Origin: Alphaproteobacteria bacterium
GTDB lineage: Bacteria; Pseudomonadota; Alphaproteobacteria; CAISOG01
Length of the DNA: 64,000 nt
Direction: 5' to 3'
NCBI GenBank assembly: GCA_044345375.1
Contig: JBIJBF010000002.1
Coordinates: 46,619-110,618, forward strand
The notes under the pieces: model-generated
Databases searched by the model: none
The model's input: the letters and a program-made list of their open reading frames with translations, nothing else
Told to the model about the DNA's origin: nothing
Program-made: the position numbers and the translations under genes
In this document: positions 10,102 through 56,610 of the stretch, in pieces
Layout of the letters: each line of letters starts with the position of its first letter
Position numbering within the stretch: position 1 is the stretch's first letter

Positions 10102-11862
10102 ATGACCAAGCCAACATCGGATTTTCTGCCCAGCAAGTCGTTATGGAAACGCCTGATGCAAGGCTATGTGCGGCGGGAGGTGGGCAGCTTGGCGGTAGCC
10201 CTGCTGTGCATGGCGTTGGCGGCGGGCGCAACGGCGGCCTTGGCCAAGTTGATGGAGCCGGTGCTGGATCAGGTGTTTGTGCAAAAAAACGCGGGCAGCT
10301 TAACCCGCATCGCCGGGCTGGTGCTGGCCACCTTTGTGATCAAGGGGTTGGCCACCTATGGCCAGACCGTGCTGATGACCGGCGTGGGGCTTAGAATCGT
10401 TGCCAGATTGCAAGAACAGGTGGGCAGCCACCTGCTGGGCGCGGATTTGGCCTATTTCCAACGCCACCCCACCGGTGTGCTGTTGACCCATATGATTCAG
10501 GATATTCAGCAGTTGCGCTACGCGGTGTCGAACGCCATCACCGCGATTGGCAAAGACAGCCTGACCCTGATCGCCCTGCTTGCCGTGATGTTCTGGCAGG
10601 ATTGGCGCCTGGCCTGTCTGGCCTTTATCGCCTTTCCGGTGGCGATTTTGCCGATTCGTTGGATTGGTCGGCGGGTACGGCGTGAGGCGGCCAGTGCGCA
10701 GGTGCAGCAGGCCAACCTCTCAAGCCTGTTGATGCAGCTGTTTCAGGGCATTCGCTACGTCAAGGCCTATGGGGCTGAGGGGGTGGAGTCGGCGCGGCTG
10801 GCGGCGCAGGTGGCCGACACCCAAACCCACCAGATGATGCTAACGCGGGTTAAGGCGGCGGCGCACCCCCTGATGGAGGGGTTGGGGGGCGTGGCGATCG
10901 TGCTGGTGATCATTTATGGCGGCGAGCAGGTGATGGCCGGCACCCGCACCACCGGCAGCTTTTTCTCTTTCATCACCGCCCTGCTGCTGGCCTATGAGCC
11001 GCTCAAACGCCTGACCCATCTGAACGCCAATCTGCAGGAGGGGTTGGCGAGTGCCGCCCGGGTGTTTGCCCTGCTCGACACCCCAAGGCAGGTGGTGGAT
11101 ATCCATGGCGCCGCTGCCCTGCGATCCAGCGGCGGTGAAATTCGGTTCGATCAGGTCAGCTTTGGCTATAGCGACGAACAATCGGTGCTTGACCGCCTAA
11201 GCTTTACCATTCCCGCGGGGCAAACGGTGGCGATTGTTGGGCCATCGGGGGCTGGCAAATCCACCATTGCCAACCTGATGCTGCGCTTTCAGGATCCTTT
11301 GGCTGGGCAGGTGCTGGTGGATGGCCAGGATATCGCCGCGGTGACCCAGGCCAGCCTGCGCCAATCGATCGCCTTTGTGGGTCAAGAAATTTACCTGTTT
11401 AACGCCAGCGTTAAGGATAATGTTGCGTATAATCAGGAACATGCCAGCCAGAAAAACATTGAATCGGCGGTGGCGGCGGCGGGCGCGGCCGGTTTTGTGG
11501 CGGAACTGCCCGATGGCTTGGCAAGTTTGGTGGGCGAATTGGGCAACCGCCTGTCGGGCGGCCAGCGGCAACGCATCGCCCTGGCCAGAGCGTTGCTGCG
11601 CGATGCGCCAATTCTGTTGTTGGATGAGGCCACCTCAGCCCTTGACCCGGAATCCGAACGCCACGTGCTGGCCAGCCTAAAACGGCTGCGGATGGGCAAA
11701 ACCACGGTGATGATCGCCCACCGCCTGTCAACCATTGTCGACGCCGACCAAATCTTGGTCCTATCAGCCGGCCAGTTGGTTGAGCAGGGACGGCACGAGA
11801 AACTGCTGGCCAGCGGCGGCCTGTACAGCCAACTTTATCAGCAACCTGAGGGGGGTGCGTAA
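10102..11862 (+). CDS. ABC transporter permease/ATPase, MsbA-like lipid exporter family
   Basis: 586 aa. The N-terminal region has 6 TM segments. The C-terminal NBD carries Walker A GPSGAGKST, the signature LSGGQRQRIALARALL and Walker B ILLLDEATSALD. Confidence 0.85.
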   Translation: MTKPTSDFLPSKSLWKRLMQGYVRREVGSLAVALLCMALAAGATAALAKLMEPVLDQVFVQKNAGSLTRIAGLVLATFVIKGLATYGQTVLMTGVGLRIVARLQEQVGSHLLGADLAYFQRHPTGVLLTHMIQDIQQLRYAVSNAITAIGKDSLTLIALLAVMFWQDWRLACLAFIAFPVAILPIRWIGRRVRREAASAQVQQANLSSLLMQLFQGIRYVKAYGAEGVESARLAAQVADTQTHQMMLTRVKAAAHPLMEGLGGVAIVLVIIYGGEQVMAGTRTTGSFFSFITALLLAYEPLKRLTHLNANLQEGLASAARVFALLDTPRQVVDIHGAAALRSSGGEIRFDQVSFGYSDEQSVLDRLSFTIPAGQTVAIVGPSGAGKSTIANLMLRFQDPLAGQVLVDGQDIAAVTQASLRQSIAFVGQEIYLFNASVKDNVAYNQEHASQKNIESAVAAAGAAGFVAELPDGLASLVGELGNRLSGGQRQRIALARALLRDAPILLLDEATSALDPESERHVLASLKRLRMGKTTVMIAHRLSTIVDADQILVLSAGQLVEQGRHEKLLASGGLYSQLYQQPEGGA

Positions 11863-11872
11863 GGCGATCGTA

Positions 11873-11928
11873 AATTCCCCTCCCGCGGAGGGGTGGCAGG
11901 CGCAGCCTGACGGGGTGGTTTTTTCAGG
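11873..11928. repeat. REP-like GC-rich palindromic unit (locus A)
   Basis: aattcccctcccgcggaggggtggcaggcgcagcctgacggggtgg. This is the same unit family as at 13606, 41286, 46383 and 56566. Confidence 0.8.
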
Positions 11929-11932
11929 GTGT

Positions 11933-13447
11933 TTAACGCCCCCTTTCCTGCTCTGCCAGCCTTTGCGCATCTAGATATGCCAGCGTTTCCTGTGCCGCTT
12001 GTTTGACCACGGAATCTGTCGCTTCAGCTGCGATGATTCGTAGTGTTTTGTCTGCATCTGGTGCAAGATTTCCTACCGCTTGGAAGCCCTGAATAATGGT
12101 TTGCCGCACATAACGATCGTCTTGTGTATCTTCGGCTATCCTTAACAGTGTTTCTTGTAATGGGAAATCTTGGGGTGTTTTTTGCAGAAGTGCGGTGATC
12201 GCGGCGCAACGCAGGCCAGGTGAGTTTCCTTTATAGGTTGCGGTTTCTAGCCATCTCTCGTGCGAATTTTTATTCTGATCTATAGATGTTATCGTTTCTA
12301 TCGCAGATTCCTTGACCAAGGAATCTGTCGCTTTGTTCGCGATCATGTGTAGTTTTGTGTATGCATTTGGTTCAAGGTTTTCTACCCCTTGGAAACCCTT
12401 AATAATAGCAACCCTAAGGTCAAAAATTTCTGCTTCATTTTCTGCTATTTCTAAAATTTTTAATTGCATGGAGTAATCTTGGGGTAGATATTGCAAAAGT
12501 TTGGTAATCGCTGTTTGACGTTTGCTAAGACATAGGTCTGCATTATTTGCGTTTCTACACAAATCATTTTTATTTTTTTCTAAATCAACAGACTTCAGCG
12601 TGCTATTTATATCGTTTTTTACATATTGAACCCGATGTCGTGCTGCAATTTGTTGTAGTCTTTTGTATATATTTGGTTTGGAGTATGCTATTCCGGAGAA
12701 ATTACCAATAATATTTTGTATTAATTGGCATTCTGGCGAGTAATCGTTTGTTTCTGTGTTTTCAATAACTGTTAACAAGCAATTTTGAACATGTTCATTG
12801 TTTGGCATAAGATACAAAAGAACATTAATTATTTGGATTTTATTTTTTAAATATTCTTCTTGATTGATGGCGATTTCACGCAGCCACTCTCTAACCGTCG
12901 AATGATGCCAAGCATGACGATTCCTAGGATCTGTTATATAATCCAAGATTTGCTGATGTGATTGTTGTGATTGCCGTGCGGCCGTTGTAAGAACTTGGCT
13001 AGCTCTATTAGAAAGTTCAGGGTGGCTTCTGCCGATACAGTCGCCTATTTCCTTCATGACTTCTGGGTTTTCTATCGATGGGACAAGAGCATTGATTGCT
13101 GCAAGGCCAACAACGACATGCTCGGGAGAATGTTCGTGTAACAAGGCACCAATCACCTCTTGTAGCTCGGCATTTCCTGAAACGGTATGGCCTAAGGCAT
13201 TAATCGCCGCTGCGCGAATCTCCGGTAATCGTTGCGTGTTTTGAGCGCAGGTCAGCAACTCCTGTTGCACAACAGGATATTTTGCATAGTTTTTGAAAAT
13301 CCAGATGAGAGTTTTAGTATTCGGACCGTTTTCACTGAAAACAAGATCTTTCGGATCATTAAGCCGTGGCAGCAATTTCTCGAAGAACAGCTCTGCCCAA
13401 AACCCCATTGGACGCACAAATTCCGCTGAAACTTCTGTTGTGCCCAT
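11933..13447 (-). CDS. HEAT-repeat (PBS-lyase-like) protein, hypothetical
   Basis: 504-aa ORF made of degenerate HEAT-like helical repeats. Most of the gene is AT-rich (12250-13450) and the 3' part has a diverged internal tandem duplication. It is flanked on both sides by REP-like elements. Confidence 0.6.
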   Translation of the reverse strand: MGTTEVSAEFVRPMGFWAELFFEKLLPRLNDPKDLVFSENGPNTKTLIWIFKNYAKYPVVQQELLTCAQNTQRLPEIRAAAINALGHTVSGNAELQEVIGALLHEHSPEHVVVGLAAINALVPSIENPEVMKEIGDCIGRSHPELSNRASQVLTTAARQSQQSHQQILDYITDPRNRHAWHHSTVREWLREIAINQEEYLKNKIQIINVLLYLMPNNEHVQNCLLTVIENTETNDYSPECQLIQNIIGNFSGIAYSKPNIYKRLQQIAARHRVQYVKNDINSTLKSVDLEKNKNDLCRNANNADLCLSKRQTAITKLLQYLPQDYSMQLKILEIAENEAEIFDLRVAIIKGFQGVENLEPNAYTKLHMIANKATDSLVKESAIETITSIDQNKNSHERWLETATYKGNSPGLRCAAITALLQKTPQDFPLQETLLRIAEDTQDDRYVRQTIIQGFQAVGNLAPDADKTLRIIAAEATDSVVKQAAQETLAYLDAQRLAEQERGR

Positions 13448-13605
13448 GAAAAACCCCTTAAGAAAGATATCAACGAATAAAACTATATTTTATTTTAAAT
13501 GTCAATAAATGTTATTGTAGCATAGGGTTTTTGGTTTGGTGTTGCTGTTGGCGTGCCTGGCCCGTTAGGCTGTGCCGGACAAAGCGGGGGGGCGCAAAGA
13601 AAGAA

Positions 13606-13706
13606 CCACCCCGTCAGGCTTCGCCTGCCACCCCTCCGCGGGAGGGGAATAAGTAAGACGTCCCTAAATTCCCCTCCTGCGGAGGGGTGCCCGAAGGGCG
13701 GGGTGG
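13606..13706. repeat. REP-like element cluster (two inverted units), locus B
   Basis: ccaccccgtcaggcttcgcctgccacccctccgcgggaggggaat, then after a spacer the inverted unit aattcccctcctgcggaggggtgcccgaagggcggggtgg. It lies directly downstream of rho and the HEAT gene. Confidence 0.8.
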
Positions 13707-19162: not shown

Positions 19163-20215
19163 ATGAATTCTGCCAAAAATATGCTTTGTTTGAGTGCGGA
19201 CAATGTTGCCATTTTGGTGGCTCAGCATGGCGTGGCCAATTGCATTGCGGGCATCGCTGACTACATCGTCGCGGATTTCAAGCGTTGGCAGGAGTTTGAA
19301 AAATGCGCCCGCCTGGCCAACCATTCGCCGCAGGGGGTGATTGAGCTGATGCCGATCGCCGATCAGCAGTTCTACGCGTTCAAATACGTCAATGGGCATC
19401 CCAAAAACGAACAGCTTGGCCTGCCAACCATCATGGCCTTTGGCGCGTTTTGCGAAATGGCCACCGGCGTGCCGCTGCTGGTGTGTGACTTAACCTTGGT
19501 TACCGCTTTGCGTACCGCCGCCACCTCAGCCATGGTGGCCAAACTGCTGGCGCGTCCTGATGCAACGCGGATGGCGCTGATCGGCAATGGCGCGCAAAGC
19601 GAATTCCAGGCACTGGCCTTCCACCATATGCTGGGGGTTCAGGAATTTCGCCTGTTTGATGTCGATTCCAACGCCACCGATAAGCTGCTGCGCAATCTGG
19701 CCAGCCTGGGGCTGCAGGGTCGCCGCTGCAGCAGCGTGGCCACGGCGGTGCAGGGCGTGGACATCATCACCACCGTGACCGCTGACAAAACCAACGCCAC
19801 CATCCTGCTGCCTGAGTTCATTACGCCTAGCATGCACCTTAACGCGGTGGGGGGCGATTGCCCTGGCAAGACTGAGCTGCATGCGGACATTCTGGATATG
19901 GGCACCGTGTTTGTGGAATTTACCCCGCAAAGCCGCATTGAGGGCGAGGTGCAGCAAAAGCCGCAGGATTTCCCGGTGGTGGAGTTGTGGGAGGTGTTGC
20001 AGGGGCAGCATCCTGGCCGCACATCCCCTGAAGACGTCACCATCTTTGATTCGGTGGGTTTCGCGTTGGAGGATTTTTCGGCCCTGCGCTACATCTTTGA
20101 CCTTGCCACCCAGCTTGGCATCGTTGGTTCGCCCGCGCTGGTGCCCATCCTGCCCGAGCCGAAAAATCTGTTTTCGCTGATCCCACCGTCTGCGGTGCTG
20201 GCGATGGCTTCTTAA
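19163..20215 (+). CDS. Ornithine cyclodeaminase / mu-crystallin family protein
   Basis: The OCD-family Rossmann region is present (ALIGNGAQSEFQALAFHHMLGVQEFRLFDVD...DIITTVTADK). The ORF table start is 19151. MNSAKNM at 19163 is equally possible. Confidence 0.8.
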   Translation: MNSAKNMLCLSADNVAILVAQHGVANCIAGIADYIVADFKRWQEFEKCARLANHSPQGVIELMPIADQQFYAFKYVNGHPKNEQLGLPTIMAFGAFCEMATGVPLLVCDLTLVTALRTAATSAMVAKLLARPDATRMALIGNGAQSEFQALAFHHMLGVQEFRLFDVDSNATDKLLRNLASLGLQGRRCSSVATAVQGVDIITTVTADKTNATILLPEFITPSMHLNAVGGDCPGKTELHADILDMGTVFVEFTPQSRIEGEVQQKPQDFPVVELWEVLQGQHPGRTSPEDVTIFDSVGFALEDFSALRYIFDLATQLGIVGSPALVPILPEPKNLFSLIPPSAVLAMAS

Positions 20216-20255
20216 GCGTCACCGCACACTGTTTAAAATCGCCAATATCTAACGC

Positions 20256-23200
20256 TGGCTCCCCGGGTAGGAGAGGGGTTGTTAATGCAATATTTTGATA
20301 ATCAACGATTATCTTATTTTCGATTTTCAGACATACCGTTTGATATACCGTCAAAAATGGGTTGCTGGGCAGTGCCAGCCTCCATTTATCCTATCATTGT
20401 TACGCCCGCGTTGGGGCATGGGTCAAGGCTGCTGGGGGTCACCTCCTCATGCTGGGGGTGGGGGACGTAGGAACAAGAGAGATGGTCATGGCGCAACAAC
20501 CTCTGGCACACGCAATGGCAGACCAAAACTACCCCGCTCCACCCCGTTTGGCCAGCGGGAAAGCTCCAGAGTGAAAGCGATGGCCGCTATTTAATCCGCA
20601 AGCGGTTGCTAATCGCCAAACCAAACAAAAAGATCATCAAAGCCGAAAAGATTTTGTAATCGGCGATCTGTTGCTATGGTTAGATTATCTGTCATTGAGA
20701 TCATCATGCCCCTAAGCTGGAACGAAATACGCGCAAGAGCAGGCCGCTTTGCCACGGAATGGCAGGGGCGTGGCTATGAAAAGGGCGATACTGGCCAATT
20801 CTACCACCAATTTTTTGAAGTATTTGGGCGAAGGGCGCGCGACGTAAATCTCTACTTTGAAAAGCGTGTCAAACTGCCCAGCAACACACAGGGTTTCATT
20901 GATCTTTTTTGGCCAGGAACCCTGCTTGTTGAACAAAAATCACTGGGACTAAGCCTAGAAAAAGCCCGCGTTCAGGCCACCGATTACTACCTTACCCTCA
21001 AAGATGACGAACGCCCGCGCTATATTCTGCTTTCTGATTTCCAAAACTTTGAATTGCTGGATTTGGAAACCAATGAAACGCACATTTTTACCTTAGCCGC
21101 CCTGCCCGACAACATTCGACGGTTTGACTTTGTCGCTGGCTACCAGCGTGAACAGTACAAAGACCAGCCAGAGGTGAATATCGAGGCGGCAACCCTGATG
21201 GGCAATCTGCACGCACAGTTGGAGAAGAGTGGTTATAGTGGCGTTGATCTGGAAAAACTGTTGGTGCGCCTGATGTTCTGCCTGTTTGCTGACGACACAG
21301 GGATTTTTAACCCCGACAGTTTTCTGAACTATATTGAAATTAAAACCAGTGGGGATGGACGCGACCTGGGGTCAAATCTTATTCATTTGTTTGAGACGTT
21401 GGATACCGCACCGGCCGATCGGCAAAAAACCTTAGACGAAGACCTGGCGGAATTCCCCCATGTGAATGGCAAATTGTTTGCTGGCCTGATTCGCACACCA
21501 AGTTTTGATGCACCCATGCGCCAGGCGCTGCTGCAATGCTGCCGTTTCAAATGGAACAGGGTGTCGCCCGCCCTGTTCGGATCCCTGTTTCAAATGGTTA
21601 TGTTGCCTGAGGAGCAGCGCAGGGGAGGCGCCCATTACACCAGTGAGCGCAACATCCTGAAAACCATCCACCCGCTGTTTTTGGATGAATTGCGAGAGGA
21701 GTTTGAAAAAATCCGCCATGACAAATCGACCCAGCGTGAATCCAGGCTGAAAAAGTTTCATGAGAAACTTGGCACCCTGACCTTTTTCGACCCAGCCTGC
21801 GGCTGTGGCAATTTTTTGATTTTGGCCTACCGCGAATTGCGTTTGTTAGAGCTTGAGGTGTTGGAGGCGTTGCACCCCAAACGCCAGCTGGAATTAGACG
21901 TCAAAAAACTGTCCAAGGTCGATGTTGATCAGTTTTATGGCATTGAGATTGAGGAGTTTCCCGCCCATATCGCTGAGGCCGCCATGTGGTTGGTCGATCA
22001 CCAGATGAACATGAAGCTGTCGGAATCTTTCGGCCAATCCCTTGTACGCCTACCCCTGAAAAAATCCGCCCATATTACCCAGGGTAACGCCCTGACCATC
22101 CCTTGGAAGGACATCATCGCCCCCAGCAAGCTAAGCTACATGCTGGGCAACCCACCCTTTGTGGGGTCAAAATATCAGAACGATACCCAACGCGCAGAGT
22201 TAGTGGCAGTATTCGACGGTATAATAGGCGCGGGTGTACTCGACTACGTTACAGCATGGTATTGGAAAGCGGCGCAGTATATTCAGGGGACGCGCATCAA
22301 GGTAGCTTTTGTTTCCACCAATTCCATCACCCAGGGCGAACAGGCAGGTATTCTCTGGCAGCCGCTGCTATCTCGTTACGGTATTCGCATCCAATTTGCT
22401 CACCGTACTTTCAAATGGACGATTGATGAGAAAAAAGCCAAAGGTATGCGACTTGCCGCCGTCTATTGTGTGATTGTGGGCTTTACCGCTTATGAACCAG
22501 ACGAAAAATGGTTGTTTGACTATGAAAAACCAACATCCGAACCGCACCGCGCAAAGGCAAATAACATCAACCCGTATCTGGTGGATGCAACAAACGCCGT
22601 TATCGTTAAGCGCAGCAAGCCGCTTTGTAATGTACCTGAAATAAATTTTGGAAATCAACCAATTGATGGTGGCGGCTTGATTTTAAGCGGGCAAGAAAGA
22701 AATGATATATTATCATATTATCCTGATGCATCTCCTCTGATTCGTAAATTTGTTGGCGCAGAAGAGTTGATTAACGGCTCTATGCGCTATTGTTTATGGC
22801 TAAAGAATGTTTCGCCAGCACTTTACCGCAATATCAAGCCTATTATTGAGAGGTTGGAGTATGTCAGAAAAAATAGACTTGGGAGCGCGCGGCCAGCAAC
22901 CAAAGAGCTGGCTAGTACCCCCTCATTGTTTGGCTTCATTAGCCACGAAGAAACCGATTATATCATTATTCCGTCAGTTTCTTCTGAAAGGCGCTTATAT
23001 GTGCCGATAGATATTTTCAGTCGCGATGTTATTGCCAGCAACCTTTGCCTTATTATCCCCAACGCCACGCTCTACCATTTCGGCGTGTTGACCTCGCTGA
23101 TGCATATGGATTGGATGCGTCATGTATGCGGCAGGTTAGAAAGCCGTTACCGCTATTCCAACACGCTTGTTTACAACAACTTCCCTTGGCCAGCTGCCCC

Positions 23201-23657
23201 CTCAGCTGAACAGGTTAAGGTGATTGAGGATCGGGCGCAGGCGGTGTTGGAGGCGCGGGCGCAATTTCCAAACTCCACCCTGGCTGACCTGTACGACCCA
23301 CTTACCATGCCACCCGCCTTGCTAAAGGCTCACCAAGCCCTCGACAAGGCCGTGGATGCCGCCTATCGCAAGAAACCCTTTGAGTCTGAACGCGAACGGA
23401 TTGAATATCTGTTTGCCGAATACCAACGCCTCACCGCCCCCTTGATCGGTGCCATCAAACCAAAGCCCAGGAAAAAGCGGGGTACGACCTAACCCTTCCC
23501 CCCACTTCTGACCCCATCAAACACTCACTTCCATTGCCCAGCCGATCAAAGGCTTTAGCCTCAAGGCAAACGGTGCGCCAACGCATCCCATAATCCAGAG
23601 CGGTGCAGGGCGTGGGGCTGGCTGATAGGGCAATTTGTTGTGGCTCCCCGGGTAGGA
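20256..23657 (-). mobile_element. Genomic island at the 3' end of tRNA-Asn (~3.4 kb), integrase-less, carrying a type IIL restriction-modification gene
   Basis: An exact 17-bp direct repeat TGGCTCCCCGGGTAGGA occurs at 20256..20272 and at 23641..23657, the latter being the 3' end of tRNA-Asn. The interior has lower GC than the flanks. It contains one large gene and ~430 bp plus ~150 bp of non-coding arms. Confidence 0.75.
20706..23492 (+). CDS. MmeI-family type IIL restriction-modification enzyme (fused endonuclease + N6-adenine methyltransferase + target-recognition domain)
   Basis: The N-terminus MPLSWNEIRARAGRFATEW matches the MmeI N-terminus. The PD-ExK nuclease motif IDLFWPGTLLVEQKS is present (D-X9-E-X-K). 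MTase motif I is FFDPACGCGNFL and motif IV is GNPPFVGS. The C-terminal TRD/helical region ends ...LYDPLTMPPALLKAHQALDKAVDAAY..ERIEYLFAEYQRL. The preferred start is M11 of the tabulated ORF (table start 20676). Confidence 0.75.
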   Translation: MPLSWNEIRARAGRFATEWQGRGYEKGDTGQFYHQFFEVFGRRARDVNLYFEKRVKLPSNTQGFIDLFWPGTLLVEQKSLGLSLEKARVQATDYYLTLKDDERPRYILLSDFQNFELLDLETNETHIFTLAALPDNIRRFDFVAGYQREQYKDQPEVNIEAATLMGNLHAQLEKSGYSGVDLEKLLVRLMFCLFADDTGIFNPDSFLNYIEIKTSGDGRDLGSNLIHLFETLDTAPADRQKTLDEDLAEFPHVNGKLFAGLIRTPSFDAPMRQALLQCCRFKWNRVSPALFGSLFQMVMLPEEQRRGGAHYTSERNILKTIHPLFLDELREEFEKIRHDKSTQRESRLKKFHEKLGTLTFFDPACGCGNFLILAYRELRLLELEVLEALHPKRQLELDVKKLSKVDVDQFYGIEIEEFPAHIAEAAMWLVDHQMNMKLSESFGQSLVRLPLKKSAHITQGNALTIPWKDIIAPSKLSYMLGNPPFVGSKYQNDTQRAELVAVFDGIIGAGVLDYVTAWYWKAAQYIQGTRIKVAFVSTNSITQGEQAGILWQPLLSRYGIRIQFAHRTFKWTIDEKKAKGMRLAAVYCVIVGFTAYEPDEKWLFDYEKPTSEPHRAKANNINPYLVDATNAVIVKRSKPLCNVPEINFGNQPIDGGGLILSGQERNDILSYYPDASPLIRKFVGAEELINGSMRYCLWLKNVSPALYRNIKPIIERLEYVRKNRLGSARPATKELASTPSLFGFISHEETDYIIIPSVSSERRLYVPIDIFSRDVIASNLCLIIPNATLYHFGVLTSLMHMDWMRHVCGRLESRYRYSNTLVYNNFPWPAAPSAEQVKVIEDRAQAVLEARAQFPNSTLADLYDPLTMPPALLKAHQALDKAVDAAYRKKPFESERERIEYLFAEYQRLTAPLIGAIKPKPRKKRGTT

Positions 23658-23715
23658 TTCGAACCCACGACCAATCGATTAACAGTCGACCGCTCTACCA
23701 CTGAGCTACCGGGGA
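23641..23715 (-). tRNA. tRNA-Asn (GTT)
   Basis: On the minus strand: TCCCCGGTAGCTCAGTGGTAGAGCGGTCGACTGTTAATCGATTGGTCGTGGGTTCGAATCCTACCCGGGGAGCCA. It is 75 nt with the anticodon loop CT-GTT-AA, a 7-bp acceptor stem and an encoded CCA. Confidence 0.9.
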
Positions 23716-23909
23716 ATGGCTGCTCAACAACGCCGCCGACTATAGCGGGGCGTCTGCGGCTGTACAAGGGGTTGCGGCCGTTCTGCGGTGATTTTTTTAA
23801 GTTGCAGCAGGTGCCCAAGCATCGCTATGGTACCGTTGAGTTATTTTCTGTTCCTGCTTTGCCCGTTTTGGGCGCCTGTTTTTTCATTTGTTTTTTGGGG
23901 ATATTTGCC

Positions 23910-25109
23910 GTGACCGCTGTTCATTCTTCCGTTCCTGAAGTTGTTATCGTTGCCGCCCGTCGCACCCCCATCGGCAGTTTTGCCGGCAGCTTGGCCAGCT
24001 TGTCTGGCGCTGAGCTGGGCGCGCTGGTGATTCAGGATTTGTTGGCGCAAACCAAACTGAACGCCGCTGAGGTGGACGAGGTGTTGTTGGGGCAGGTGTT
24101 GACCGCGGGTGTGGGGCAAAACGCCGCCCGTCAGGCTGCGGTTAAGGCCGGCATTCCGGTGGACAAAACCGCGATGACCATCAACCAGGTTTGCGGATCG
24201 GGTTTGCGGGCGGTTGCGCTGGGGATGCAGGCGATTGCGCTGGGCGATGCGTCGGTGGTGATTGCGGGCGGCCAAGAAAGCATGAGTCAGGCCACCCACT
24301 GCGCCTATTTGCGGACGGGGCAAAAAATGGGCGATCTGAATTTGGTCGATACCATGATTAAAGATGGGTTGTGGGAGGCCTTTAACGGCTATCACATGGG
24401 GATTACCGCCGAGAATGTCGCCAAAACCTATCAAATCAGCCGTGACACGCAGGATCAATTTGCGCTGGCCAGCCAGCATAAGGCTGAGGCGGCGCAAAAG
24501 GCCAACAAGTTTTTGGCGGAGATTGTGCCGGTAACCATCAAAAGCAAAAAGGATGAGCTGGTGGTGGCCAATGACGAATACCCACGGCATGGCGCCACGT
24601 TGGAAAGCTTGGCCAAGCTGCGTCCCGCCTTTGCCAGCGATGGCACGGTGACGGCCGGCAATGCCAGCGGTTTGAACGATGGCGCGGCGGCGGTGGTGCT
24701 GATGACCGCGGCGGCGGCGGCGCAACATGGCCTGACCCCCCTGGCACGCATCGCAGGGTGGGCAACCCGCGGGGTCGATCCAACCATCATGGGCACGGGG
24801 CCAATTCCAGCCAGCCGTGCTGCCCTGCAACGGGCAGGCTGGAACGTGCAAGATCTGGATTTGATTGAGGCGAATGAGGCCTTCGCGGCGCAGGCCTGTG
24901 CGGTGAATCAGGAAATGGGCTGGGATCTAACCAAGGTGAATGTCAACGGCGGCGCGATCGCCCTTGGCCATCCCATTGGCGCCAGCGGCGCGCGGGTGCT
25001 GGTAACCCTGCTGCATGAATTGCAACGGCGTGGCGGCAAAAAGGGGCTGGCGACCTTGTGCATCGGTGGCGGGATGGGCATCGCGCTGTGTGTGGAGGCG
25101 GCTGGTTAG
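23910..25109 (+). CDS. phbA: Acetyl-CoA C-acetyltransferase (beta-ketothiolase)
   Basis: Thiolase signatures are present ([18 protein letters not shown]..., [11 protein letters not shown], catalytic C-terminal [14 protein letters not shown]). The tabulated ORF (23640) runs across the antisense of tRNA-Asn. GTG 23910 or TTG 23895 is the likely start. Confidence 0.85.
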
Positions 25110-41285: not shown

Positions 41286-41419
41286 CCACCCCGTCAGGCT
41301 TCGCCTGCCACCCCTCCGTTATCATTTTGTCAGGCAAAGCCTGACGGGGGGGAGGGGAATAAGTGCGTCGGGTAATTCCCTTCCTGCGGAGGGGTGGCAG
41401 GCAAAGCCTGACGGGGTGG
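41286..41419. repeat. REP-like element cluster (three units), locus C
   Basis: ccaccccgtcaggcttcgcctgccacccctcc ... caggcaaagcctgacggggggaggggaat ... aattcccttcctgcggaggggtggcaggcaaagcctgacggggtgg. It lies between recX-like and polA. Confidence 0.8.
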
Positions 41420-56565: not shown

Positions 56566-56610
56566 CCACCCCGTCAGGCTTCGCCTGCCACCCCTCCGCG
56601 GGAGGGGAAT
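56566..56610. repeat. REP-like unit, locus E
   Basis: ccaccccgtcaggcttcgcctgccacccctccgcgggaggggaat lies between uvrD and pheT, which are convergent. Confidence 0.8.

Follow-up and report, generated by a model that had tools for sequence, protein, structure and literature searches.

The segment at positions 20256..23657 of the window, i.e., the whole 64,000-nucleotide stretch of contig JBIJBF010000002.1 (Alphaproteobacteria bacterium) that was analyzed here, is best read, with a probability of about 0.7, as what is left of an element, inserted by site-specific integration at the 3' end of a tRNA-Asn gene, the cargo of which is an intact Type IIL restriction-modification enzyme of the MmeI family. 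This small islet had been described in an initial annotation, made from the sequence alone, as an integrase-less island at a tRNA attachment (att) site, bounded by an exact 17-bp direct repeat of the tRNA-Asn 3' end, and most of that description was borne out by the anatomy of the site, by the domain structure of the enzyme, and by the different cargo that occupies the same site in a sister population.

The gene for tRNA-Asn(GTT) lies on the minus strand at 23641..23715, as located by ARAGORN and in agreement with the Rfam tRNA model (72 bits), and the plus-strand form of its 3' terminal 17 nt, including the encoded CCA, is TGGCTCCCCGGGTAGGA. Exactly two copies of this sequence are found in the 64 kb, even when two mismatches are permitted, one at 20256..20272, which forms the distal att core, and the other at 23641..23657, which forms the proximal att core within the tRNA gene, so that the repeat bounds 3.4 kb, as had been claimed, and is not one found at many loci of the window. 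A chance origin of the repeat was rejected, given that the mean number of matches in 100 dinucleotide shuffles was 0.02, with two in none of them. A second, decayed tRNA-Asn gene was also rejected as the source, since the similarity to the tRNA ends sharply after 17 bp; the identity between the copies is exactly 17 bp and the bases that flank each copy differ, and this sharp edge agrees with a site-specific crossover rather than with the decay of a second tRNA gene. The hexamer TAACGC (20250..20255) precedes the distal core copy and not the tRNA-proximal one, and it is read as the native flank downstream of the tRNA; its presence at the distal copy only is the expected product of a circular element integrating into a native TAACGC-tRNA junction.

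The composition of the segment is also foreign to its surroundings, with a guanine-cytosine (GC) content of 0.497, against 0.569 in the 10 kb to the left and 0.603 in the 10 kb to the right, which agrees with the lower GC noted at the outset. Similarly, the GC at third codon positions (GC3) of the enzyme gene is 0.553, in comparison with values of 0.69-0.75 in seven neighbouring host genes.

One especially informative comparison is provided by a sister population in which the same tRNA end holds another cargo. These loci were reached via a variant of the ornithine cyclodeaminase protein encoded beside the islet (P0272), which led to six contigs from other samples (L041-L046), where the synteny is as in the window, the flanks are 97.5% and 99.2% identical, and a different segment of 1.64 kb (GC 0.45; L041 9022..10665, equivalent to 20184..23640 of the window) lies between the cyclodeaminase gene and the tRNA-Asn. 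The right-hand homology between the two loci resumes exactly at 23641, the 3' end of the tRNA. The sister segment encodes a phage-type, 347-amino-acid (aa) P63C-domain protein (Pfam 2.8e-18; phrog_2384 6e-87), which is split in L042 and for which PADLOC returned no match, and, directly beside the tRNA, it contains a truncated and frameshifted integrase N-terminus spread over three reading frames, which matches Arm-DNA-bind_3 with E=1.3e-11 in one raw frame and 5.8e-24 when the three frame pieces are joined by hand. At either end of this segment stands a 21-bp repeat, TAACGCTGGCTCCCCGGGTAG, which is made up of TAACGC and 15 nt of the core (L041 9042..9062 and 10660..10680). The occurrence at the same tRNA end of a different, repeat-bounded cargo with an integrase remnant thus indicates an att site that has been used, the cargo of which varies among strains, and at which a P4-type integrase operated. 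Given this, the description of the islet as an integrase-less island in a tRNA att site finds support in the composition, in the repeat, and in the sister cargo with its decayed Arm-DNA-bind_3 integrase.

The searches for other genes in the islet left the enzyme gene, at 20706..23492, as its only credible gene. Pfam returned no match in any of the other open reading frames (ORFs) of the segment, and no integrase remnant or other match was obtained in all six frames of 20273..20705 at E<=10, a region in which the initial annotation had proposed to look for such remnants, and which in this respect agrees with an integrase-less islet. No integrase was found either among the other low-GC genes and regions and the larger ORFs scanned in the window. 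The leader of the islet (20273..20705, plus strand) is thus a non-coding stretch of 433 bp without a recognisable gene, for which Pfam, Rfam, and the comparisons with plasmids and other loci were all empty; in the islet as a whole, Rfam reported the tRNA alone, with no structured RNA family in the leader. At the other extremity, the 148 bp that adjoin the tRNA (23493..23640) are also non-coding and do not resemble the integrase remnant found in the sister islet, while the tRNA-adjacent end of such an islet is the usual seat of the integrase gene. Neither of these non-coding ends resembles the plasmids, the sister islet, or the other loci compared. An exact 16-bp direct repeat, GCGGTGCAGGGCGTGG, was observed between 19745..19760, inside the cyclodeaminase gene, and 23600..23615, in the tRNA-proximal end of the islet. 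Of 2000 shuffles, one yielded a match of this length, and the sequence does not recur as a dispersed motif; the repeat may be due to chance or be the trace of an earlier rearrangement.

The enzyme gene is located on the plus strand and encodes 928 aa plus the stop. While its ORF spans 20676..23492, the similarity to both MmeI and the closest paralogue begins exactly at the ATG at 20706 (MPLSWNEIR), and the 928-aa reading is therefore preferred. All five Pfam domains of MmeI are present in order, with 76-292 bits each for a cut-off of 27, that is, the MmeI_N PD-(D/E)XK endonuclease domain (aa 11-175; 20736..21230; PF20464, E=9.5e-38), the helical spacer MmeI_hel (aa 181-258; 21246..21479; PF20465, E=3.3e-21), the gamma-class N6-adenine methyltransferase domain MmeI_Mtase (aa 340-604; 21723..22517; PF20473, E=3.2e-87), the target recognition domain (TRD) MmeI_TRD (aa 628-830; 22587..23195; PF20466, E=1.5e-73), and the C-terminal domain MmeI_C (aa 835-913; 23208..23444; PF20467, E=3e-32), all of which are encoded on the plus strand. 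The PADLOC model REase_MTase_IIG was matched with 1171 bits, and the only solved structure that was matched is that of MmeI itself (PDB 5hr4), on residues 1-906 of which residues 1-913 of the enzyme are aligned with E=1e-288 and an identity of 49.8% over 913 residues. The family assignment that had been proposed, together with a profile search by which it could be checked, was therefore confirmed by Pfam, PADLOC, and the structural alignment.

The N-terminus and the motifs that had been read from the sequence, i.e., MPLSWNEIR, D-X9-E-X-K, DPACGCGNF, and NPPF, are all present in this single 928-aa gene. The nuclease motif, IDLFWPGTLLVEQKS, corresponds to D66-X9-E76-X-K78, which is aligned to D70/E80/K82 of MmeI, and this triad is invariant in 60 homologues, while motif I of the methyltransferase (DPACGCGNF, at residue 362) and motif IV (NPPF, at residue 482) are both identical to those of MmeI. 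The prototype of the Type IIL enzymes, MmeI of Methylophilus methylotrophus, which recognizes TCCRAC (20/18), thus shares with the window enzyme the three motifs and the five-domain single-chain architecture (919 aa, against 928 aa here), and likewise has no companion methyltransferase. Around the islet, no companion methyltransferase or specificity subunit was found among the neighbour genes, the order of which is shared by all contigs. The initial annotation had emphasized this solitary state; it holds, with housekeeping genes as the only neighbours, yet a solitary gene is the norm for the MmeI family (PMC2731913) and is no peculiarity of this locus.

Other defence systems with related methyltransferases were considered and rejected. 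The similarity to PglX of BREX is weak (E about 0.007), and none of the partners brxA/B/C, pglZ, or brxL is present in the neighbourhood; DrmMI of DISARM scored 74 bits, in comparison with 1171 bits for REase_MTase_IIG, and no drmA/B/C gene lies nearby. In the MmeI family, a single protein chain recognizes an asymmetric site of 6-7 bp via its C-terminal recognition domain, the AdoMet (S-adenosylmethionine)-dependent methylation of the penultimate adenine on one strand only protects the host DNA, and unmodified DNA is cut about 20/18 nt downstream by the N-terminal PD-ExK nuclease. Judging from its motifs and reading frame, the enzyme of the islet is intact and would be active.

At least six samples yielded contigs on which this protein is encoded in the same arrangement, with an identical islet sequence in five, and in every contig that bears it the islet lies at one locus only. 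The sole amino-acid difference among all the sampled strains is S178R, in strain L023. When this strain is compared with the window, 1.1% of the sites differ outside the islet, against one difference (S178R) across 20009..24880, a near-identical tract of 4.9 kb that comprises the islet together with 250 bp of the left and 1.2 kb of the right host flank, and at the divergence of L023 the islet by itself would be expected to have about 37. The low divergence of the islet and its flanks is no more than suggestive of a recent exchange by homologous recombination; the same recombinational pattern was shown experimentally for the High Pathogenicity Island (HPI) at an asn tRNA in E. coli (PMC2606025).

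The closest paralogue of the enzyme (P0014) has 88% amino-acid and 79.6% nucleotide identity, with similarity over 20706..23441 and nowhere outside the coding sequence. The gene is a pseudogene, split into 739 + 159 aa, and is present in three independent contigs (L024 10001..12781, L025, and a JGI 3300059473 contig), where it is found between a photolyase gene and a tRNA-Met and adjoins genes for an AlpA-like HTH_17 protein, a toprim/DUF6371 protein, and a DUF3987 helicase (phrog_2373), a set typical of small elements of the integrative or satellite kind. At the paralogue locus of L024, neither an integrase nor a repeat of the tRNA-Met end was found. The other close homologues, P0002 (80%), P0003 (77%), and P0010 (72%), are single genes between housekeeping genes, and their loci have no flanking tRNA-end repeat and no integrase. 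Plasmids also carry homologues (265 records), as does Leptospira phage LE1; no close relatives were found in the viral contigs.

Given these observations, the islet probably originated when a tyrosine integrase of the Arm-DNA-bind_3 (P4-like) type inserted an element at the tRNA-Asn 3' end, duplicating the 17-bp core, following which the integrase and the other genes of the element would have been lost by deletion, leaving an att-flanked, integrase-less islet, i.e., a cis-mobilizable element (CIME). The single cargo enzyme would bind an asymmetric 6-7-bp site and methylate the penultimate adenine of one strand with AdoMet, which would protect the host, and the same enzyme would cut unmodified invading DNA about 20/18 nt downstream. 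The islet is probably inherited vertically and no longer moves alone, and its passage among related strains probably takes place by homologous recombination in the conserved flanks. Of the two origins that had been put forward, a decayed integrative element or a trans-mobilised one, it is thus the former that fits best, while the latter found no support.

A number of observations weigh against this remnant reading. As no integrase remnant was found inside the window islet, the loss by deletion is something that we infer, together with the spread by recombination, the activity of the enzyme, and its specificity. Apart from the repeat, the two cargos have nothing in common and are therefore independent elements. 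The left homology between the two loci breaks at 20183, in the last codons of the cyclodeaminase gene and 72 bp before the repeat (window 20184..20255 vs L041 9022..9041), and a break that lies outside the repeat means that at least one distal junction was remodelled. The cyclodeaminase has 350 aa in the window and 342 aa in the sister strain, and the C-terminus of the window protein is closer to that of an 81% relative (L034), so the remodelled junction is probably that of the sister strain. With regard to the exchange between strains, another tract of 2.9 kb has no differences relative to L023, and the density of single-nucleotide polymorphisms is patchy elsewhere. In the case of the enzyme, no consensus sigma-70 promoter was seen upstream of the gene, and its activity is a prediction from the motifs and the frame.

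The lack of an empty site belongs with these points. While the tRNA-Asn site of the relatives could be expected to occur in an empty form, and a differently occupied site was indeed found in L041-L046, no empty tRNA-Asn site was recovered in the relatives, and we infer the insertion from the anatomy of the site and its alternative occupancy. The pattern of an empty junction, ATATCTAACGC-TGGCTCCCCGGGTAGGA-TTCGAACC, had 0 matches in metagenome_contigs, where the control for the occupied locus (the tRNA-thiolase spacer) also had 0, so that this collection evidently has no DNA of the organism and the null is uninformative. Relatives of the cyclodeaminase in genome_contigs have an identity of at most 61% and no tRNA within 10 kb; the protein-database search with the cyclodeaminase returned one relative, with 81%, the 1.9-kb contig of which ends 26 bp past the stop codon, and the exact-protein look-ups returned occupied sites only.

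The repeat may also be a legacy of an older, decayed island, into which the enzyme gene arrived later by illegitimate or homology-facilitated recombination, or by gene replacement. This is an unlikely history, which draws on the similarity to P0014, found to begin with the start codon and to stop short of the end of the coding sequence, on the lone homologues P0002, P0003, and P0010 amid housekeeping genes with no tRNA-end repeat or integrase, on the distal junction that differs between strains 72 bp outside the repeat, and on the 16-bp match that ties the tRNA-proximal end to the cyclodeaminase gene. However, the entire bounded segment, including the leader, is compositionally foreign, nothing else in it could represent an older element, and the gene is not surrounded by a further set of repeats or by a target-site duplication. 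A still smaller likelihood is assigned to an islet that is mobile today, whether excised and integrated by an integrase acting in trans or cis-mobilised after tandem joining by an incoming element. Both att copies are intact and identical, another small cargo is present at the same site in the sister population, as cassette exchange predicts, and both integrase cross-talk among asn-tDNA islands (PMC4891358) and the tandem transfer of CIMEs with Integrative and Conjugative Elements (ICEs) (PMC5704250) are documented. Against this, no integrase is present in the scanned low-GC regions and larger ORFs of the window; the viral contigs contain no circular junction, defined for an excised islet as CAATTTGTTG followed by the core and GAGGGGTTG, and no other copy of the left end of the islet; the islet is at one locus only in all the contigs that bear it; and the near-identity across strains reaches into the host flanks, which indicates homologous, not site-specific, exchange.

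It is more improbable again that the protein is a methyltransferase-only form or an inactive relic, and the islet without a role in defence. Disrupted homologues of MmeI are common in the databases (PMC2731913), three independent contigs have the closest paralogue itself in two pieces (739 + 159 aa), and the region upstream of the gene has no promoter-like site, while the gene of the islet retains a full-length frame with the nuclease triad and the methyltransferase motifs intact, and only one amino-acid difference exists among all the sampled strains.

The remnant reading places the islet among the CIMEs, which are decayed remnants of ICEs or of Integrative and Mobilizable Elements (IMEs), remnants which keep attL and attR and lack the genes for integration and transfer (PMC5704250). 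The islet is likewise att-flanked, with both 17-bp cores intact, and has no recombination or transfer genes; CIMEs were, however, defined on derivatives of streptococcal ICEs and IMEs, and the islet is likened to them by its att sites and gene content. A second likeness is found in the asn tRNA islands of the Enterobacteriaceae (the HPI of Yersinia and E. coli, and GIE492 of Klebsiella), which also occupy the tRNA-Asn 3' end with a core direct repeat of 17 bp. The asn-tDNA of Klebsiella is likewise a hotspot with alternative cargos, and a figure legend names restriction-modification and methyltransferase annotations among the features of its islands (PMC4891358), while the HPI of E. coli spreads within the species through homologous recombination in its flanks (PMC2606025). 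In contrast, the islands of the Enterobacteriaceae have 10-200 kb and usually an integrase, whereas the islet has 3.4 kb, one gene, and none, and the core sequence differs because the tRNA sequence does. The locus would also be an example of a defence gene that survives the mobile element around it and is later passed on by ordinary recombination. Only known kinds are involved, i.e., a well-known defence enzyme in a decayed mobile element, so that current understanding is unchanged and the practical value is modest.

The recognition sequence of the enzyme was predicted by mapping the contact residues of the TRD, by alignment, onto the contacts of MmeI, with the rules taken from PMC4833311 and PMC2731914. 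In MmeI, the contacts are made by residues 723/737/738 at position 1 of the site, 642/645 at position 2, 751/773 at position 3, 774/810 at position 4, and 806/808 at position 6 (PMC4833311, PMC2731914), and the contact residues of the window enzyme are F648, Q651, R729, G743, F744, S757, V758, N779, L780, L811, E812, R814, and R816. According to the published rules, S751+N773 specifies C, L774+R810 specifies G, and E806+R808 specifies C exclusively (PMC2731914, PMC4833311), while an Arg at 723 is associated with C:G at position 1 (PMC2731914, PMC4833311). Given this, S757/N779, the pair found in NmeAIII, would read C at position 3, and L780/R816, as in MmeI A774L and NmeAIII, would read only G at position 4; at position 5 the target base would be the adenine that is invariant in the family, and E812/R814 is the pair reported as specific to C alone at position 6. 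At position 1, where R729/G743/F744 are found, the Arg suggests C:G, although the Glu that usually stands at 738 is absent, and at position 2 (F648/Q651) the Phe is found in enzymes that recognize A and the Gln in those that recognize G, so that no base is assigned. The predicted site is then ?-?-C-G-A-C, the first base of which is possibly C.

In comparison with MmeI, the enzyme shares the pair at position 6 (Glu/Arg, C) and the Arg at the 810 position, while the contacts at positions 1-4 include the changes A723->R, F737->G, Y738->F, Y642->F, K645->Q, E751->S, and A774->L, so the site of the window enzyme would not be TCCRAC. The NmeAIII enzyme of Neisseria meningitidis, which recognizes GCCGAG (21/19), has the same Ser/Asn pair (C, position 3) and the same Leu/Arg pair (G, position 4) (PMC2731914); in this comparison, made at positions 3, 4, and 6, the two differ at position 6, where NmeAIII has Lys/Asp (G) and the window enzyme Glu/Arg (C). 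Among the 60 nearest homologues, the residues at the contact positions are highly variable, which is the rapid diversification known for the MmeI family. In three relatives (P0010, P0050, and the L024 paralogue), the contacts are equal to those of the window enzyme, except for Lys/Asp at position 6, and their predicted ..CGAG, against ..CGAC here, would be the equivalent, in nature, of the C-to-G switch that was engineered at position 6 of MmeI.

Several characterised enzymes have a CGAC tail, namely ApyPI (ATCGAC), DrdIV (TACGAC), and RceI (CATCGAC). The expectation that the recognition specificity would be new is consequently not established, since the predicted ..CGAC tail is common to these enzymes, and a new specificity is possible as far as the contact residues go. 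The combination of Phe648/Gln651 with Arg729/Gly743/Phe744 is undecoded by the published rules and is a possible data point for the engineering of Type IIL specificity. A broader proposal, in which the tRNA-Asn 3' end is an exchange point for integrase-less att cassettes swapped in trans, in an integron- or CIME-like manner, and in which the enzyme site ?-?-C-G-A-C, with its unprecedented Phe/Gln at position 2, is also new among the characterised Type IIL enzymes, is very doubtful.

In the order of the window, the genes around the islet are those for PutA and ornithine cyclodeaminase, followed by the islet, the tRNA-Asn, and the genes for a thiolase, MnmA, and UbiB. Farther to the left, a gene for a 504-aa HEAT-repeat protein (11933..13447, minus strand) has a GC of 0.416 and a GC3 of 0.358 within a backbone of 0.6 GC. 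This gene varies by strain, with 396 aa in L041 and 63 differences/kb relative to L023 just beside it, and it is flanked by 52-nt inverted repeats (11874..11925 and 13599..13650). Finally, the sequence ATTCCCCTCCCGCGGAGGGGTG is a dispersed palindromic element similar to the repetitive extragenic palindromic (REP) elements, with five copies at <=2 mismatches, when none are expected by chance, at 11874..11895, 13629..13650, 13668..13689, 41375..41396, and 56589..56610.

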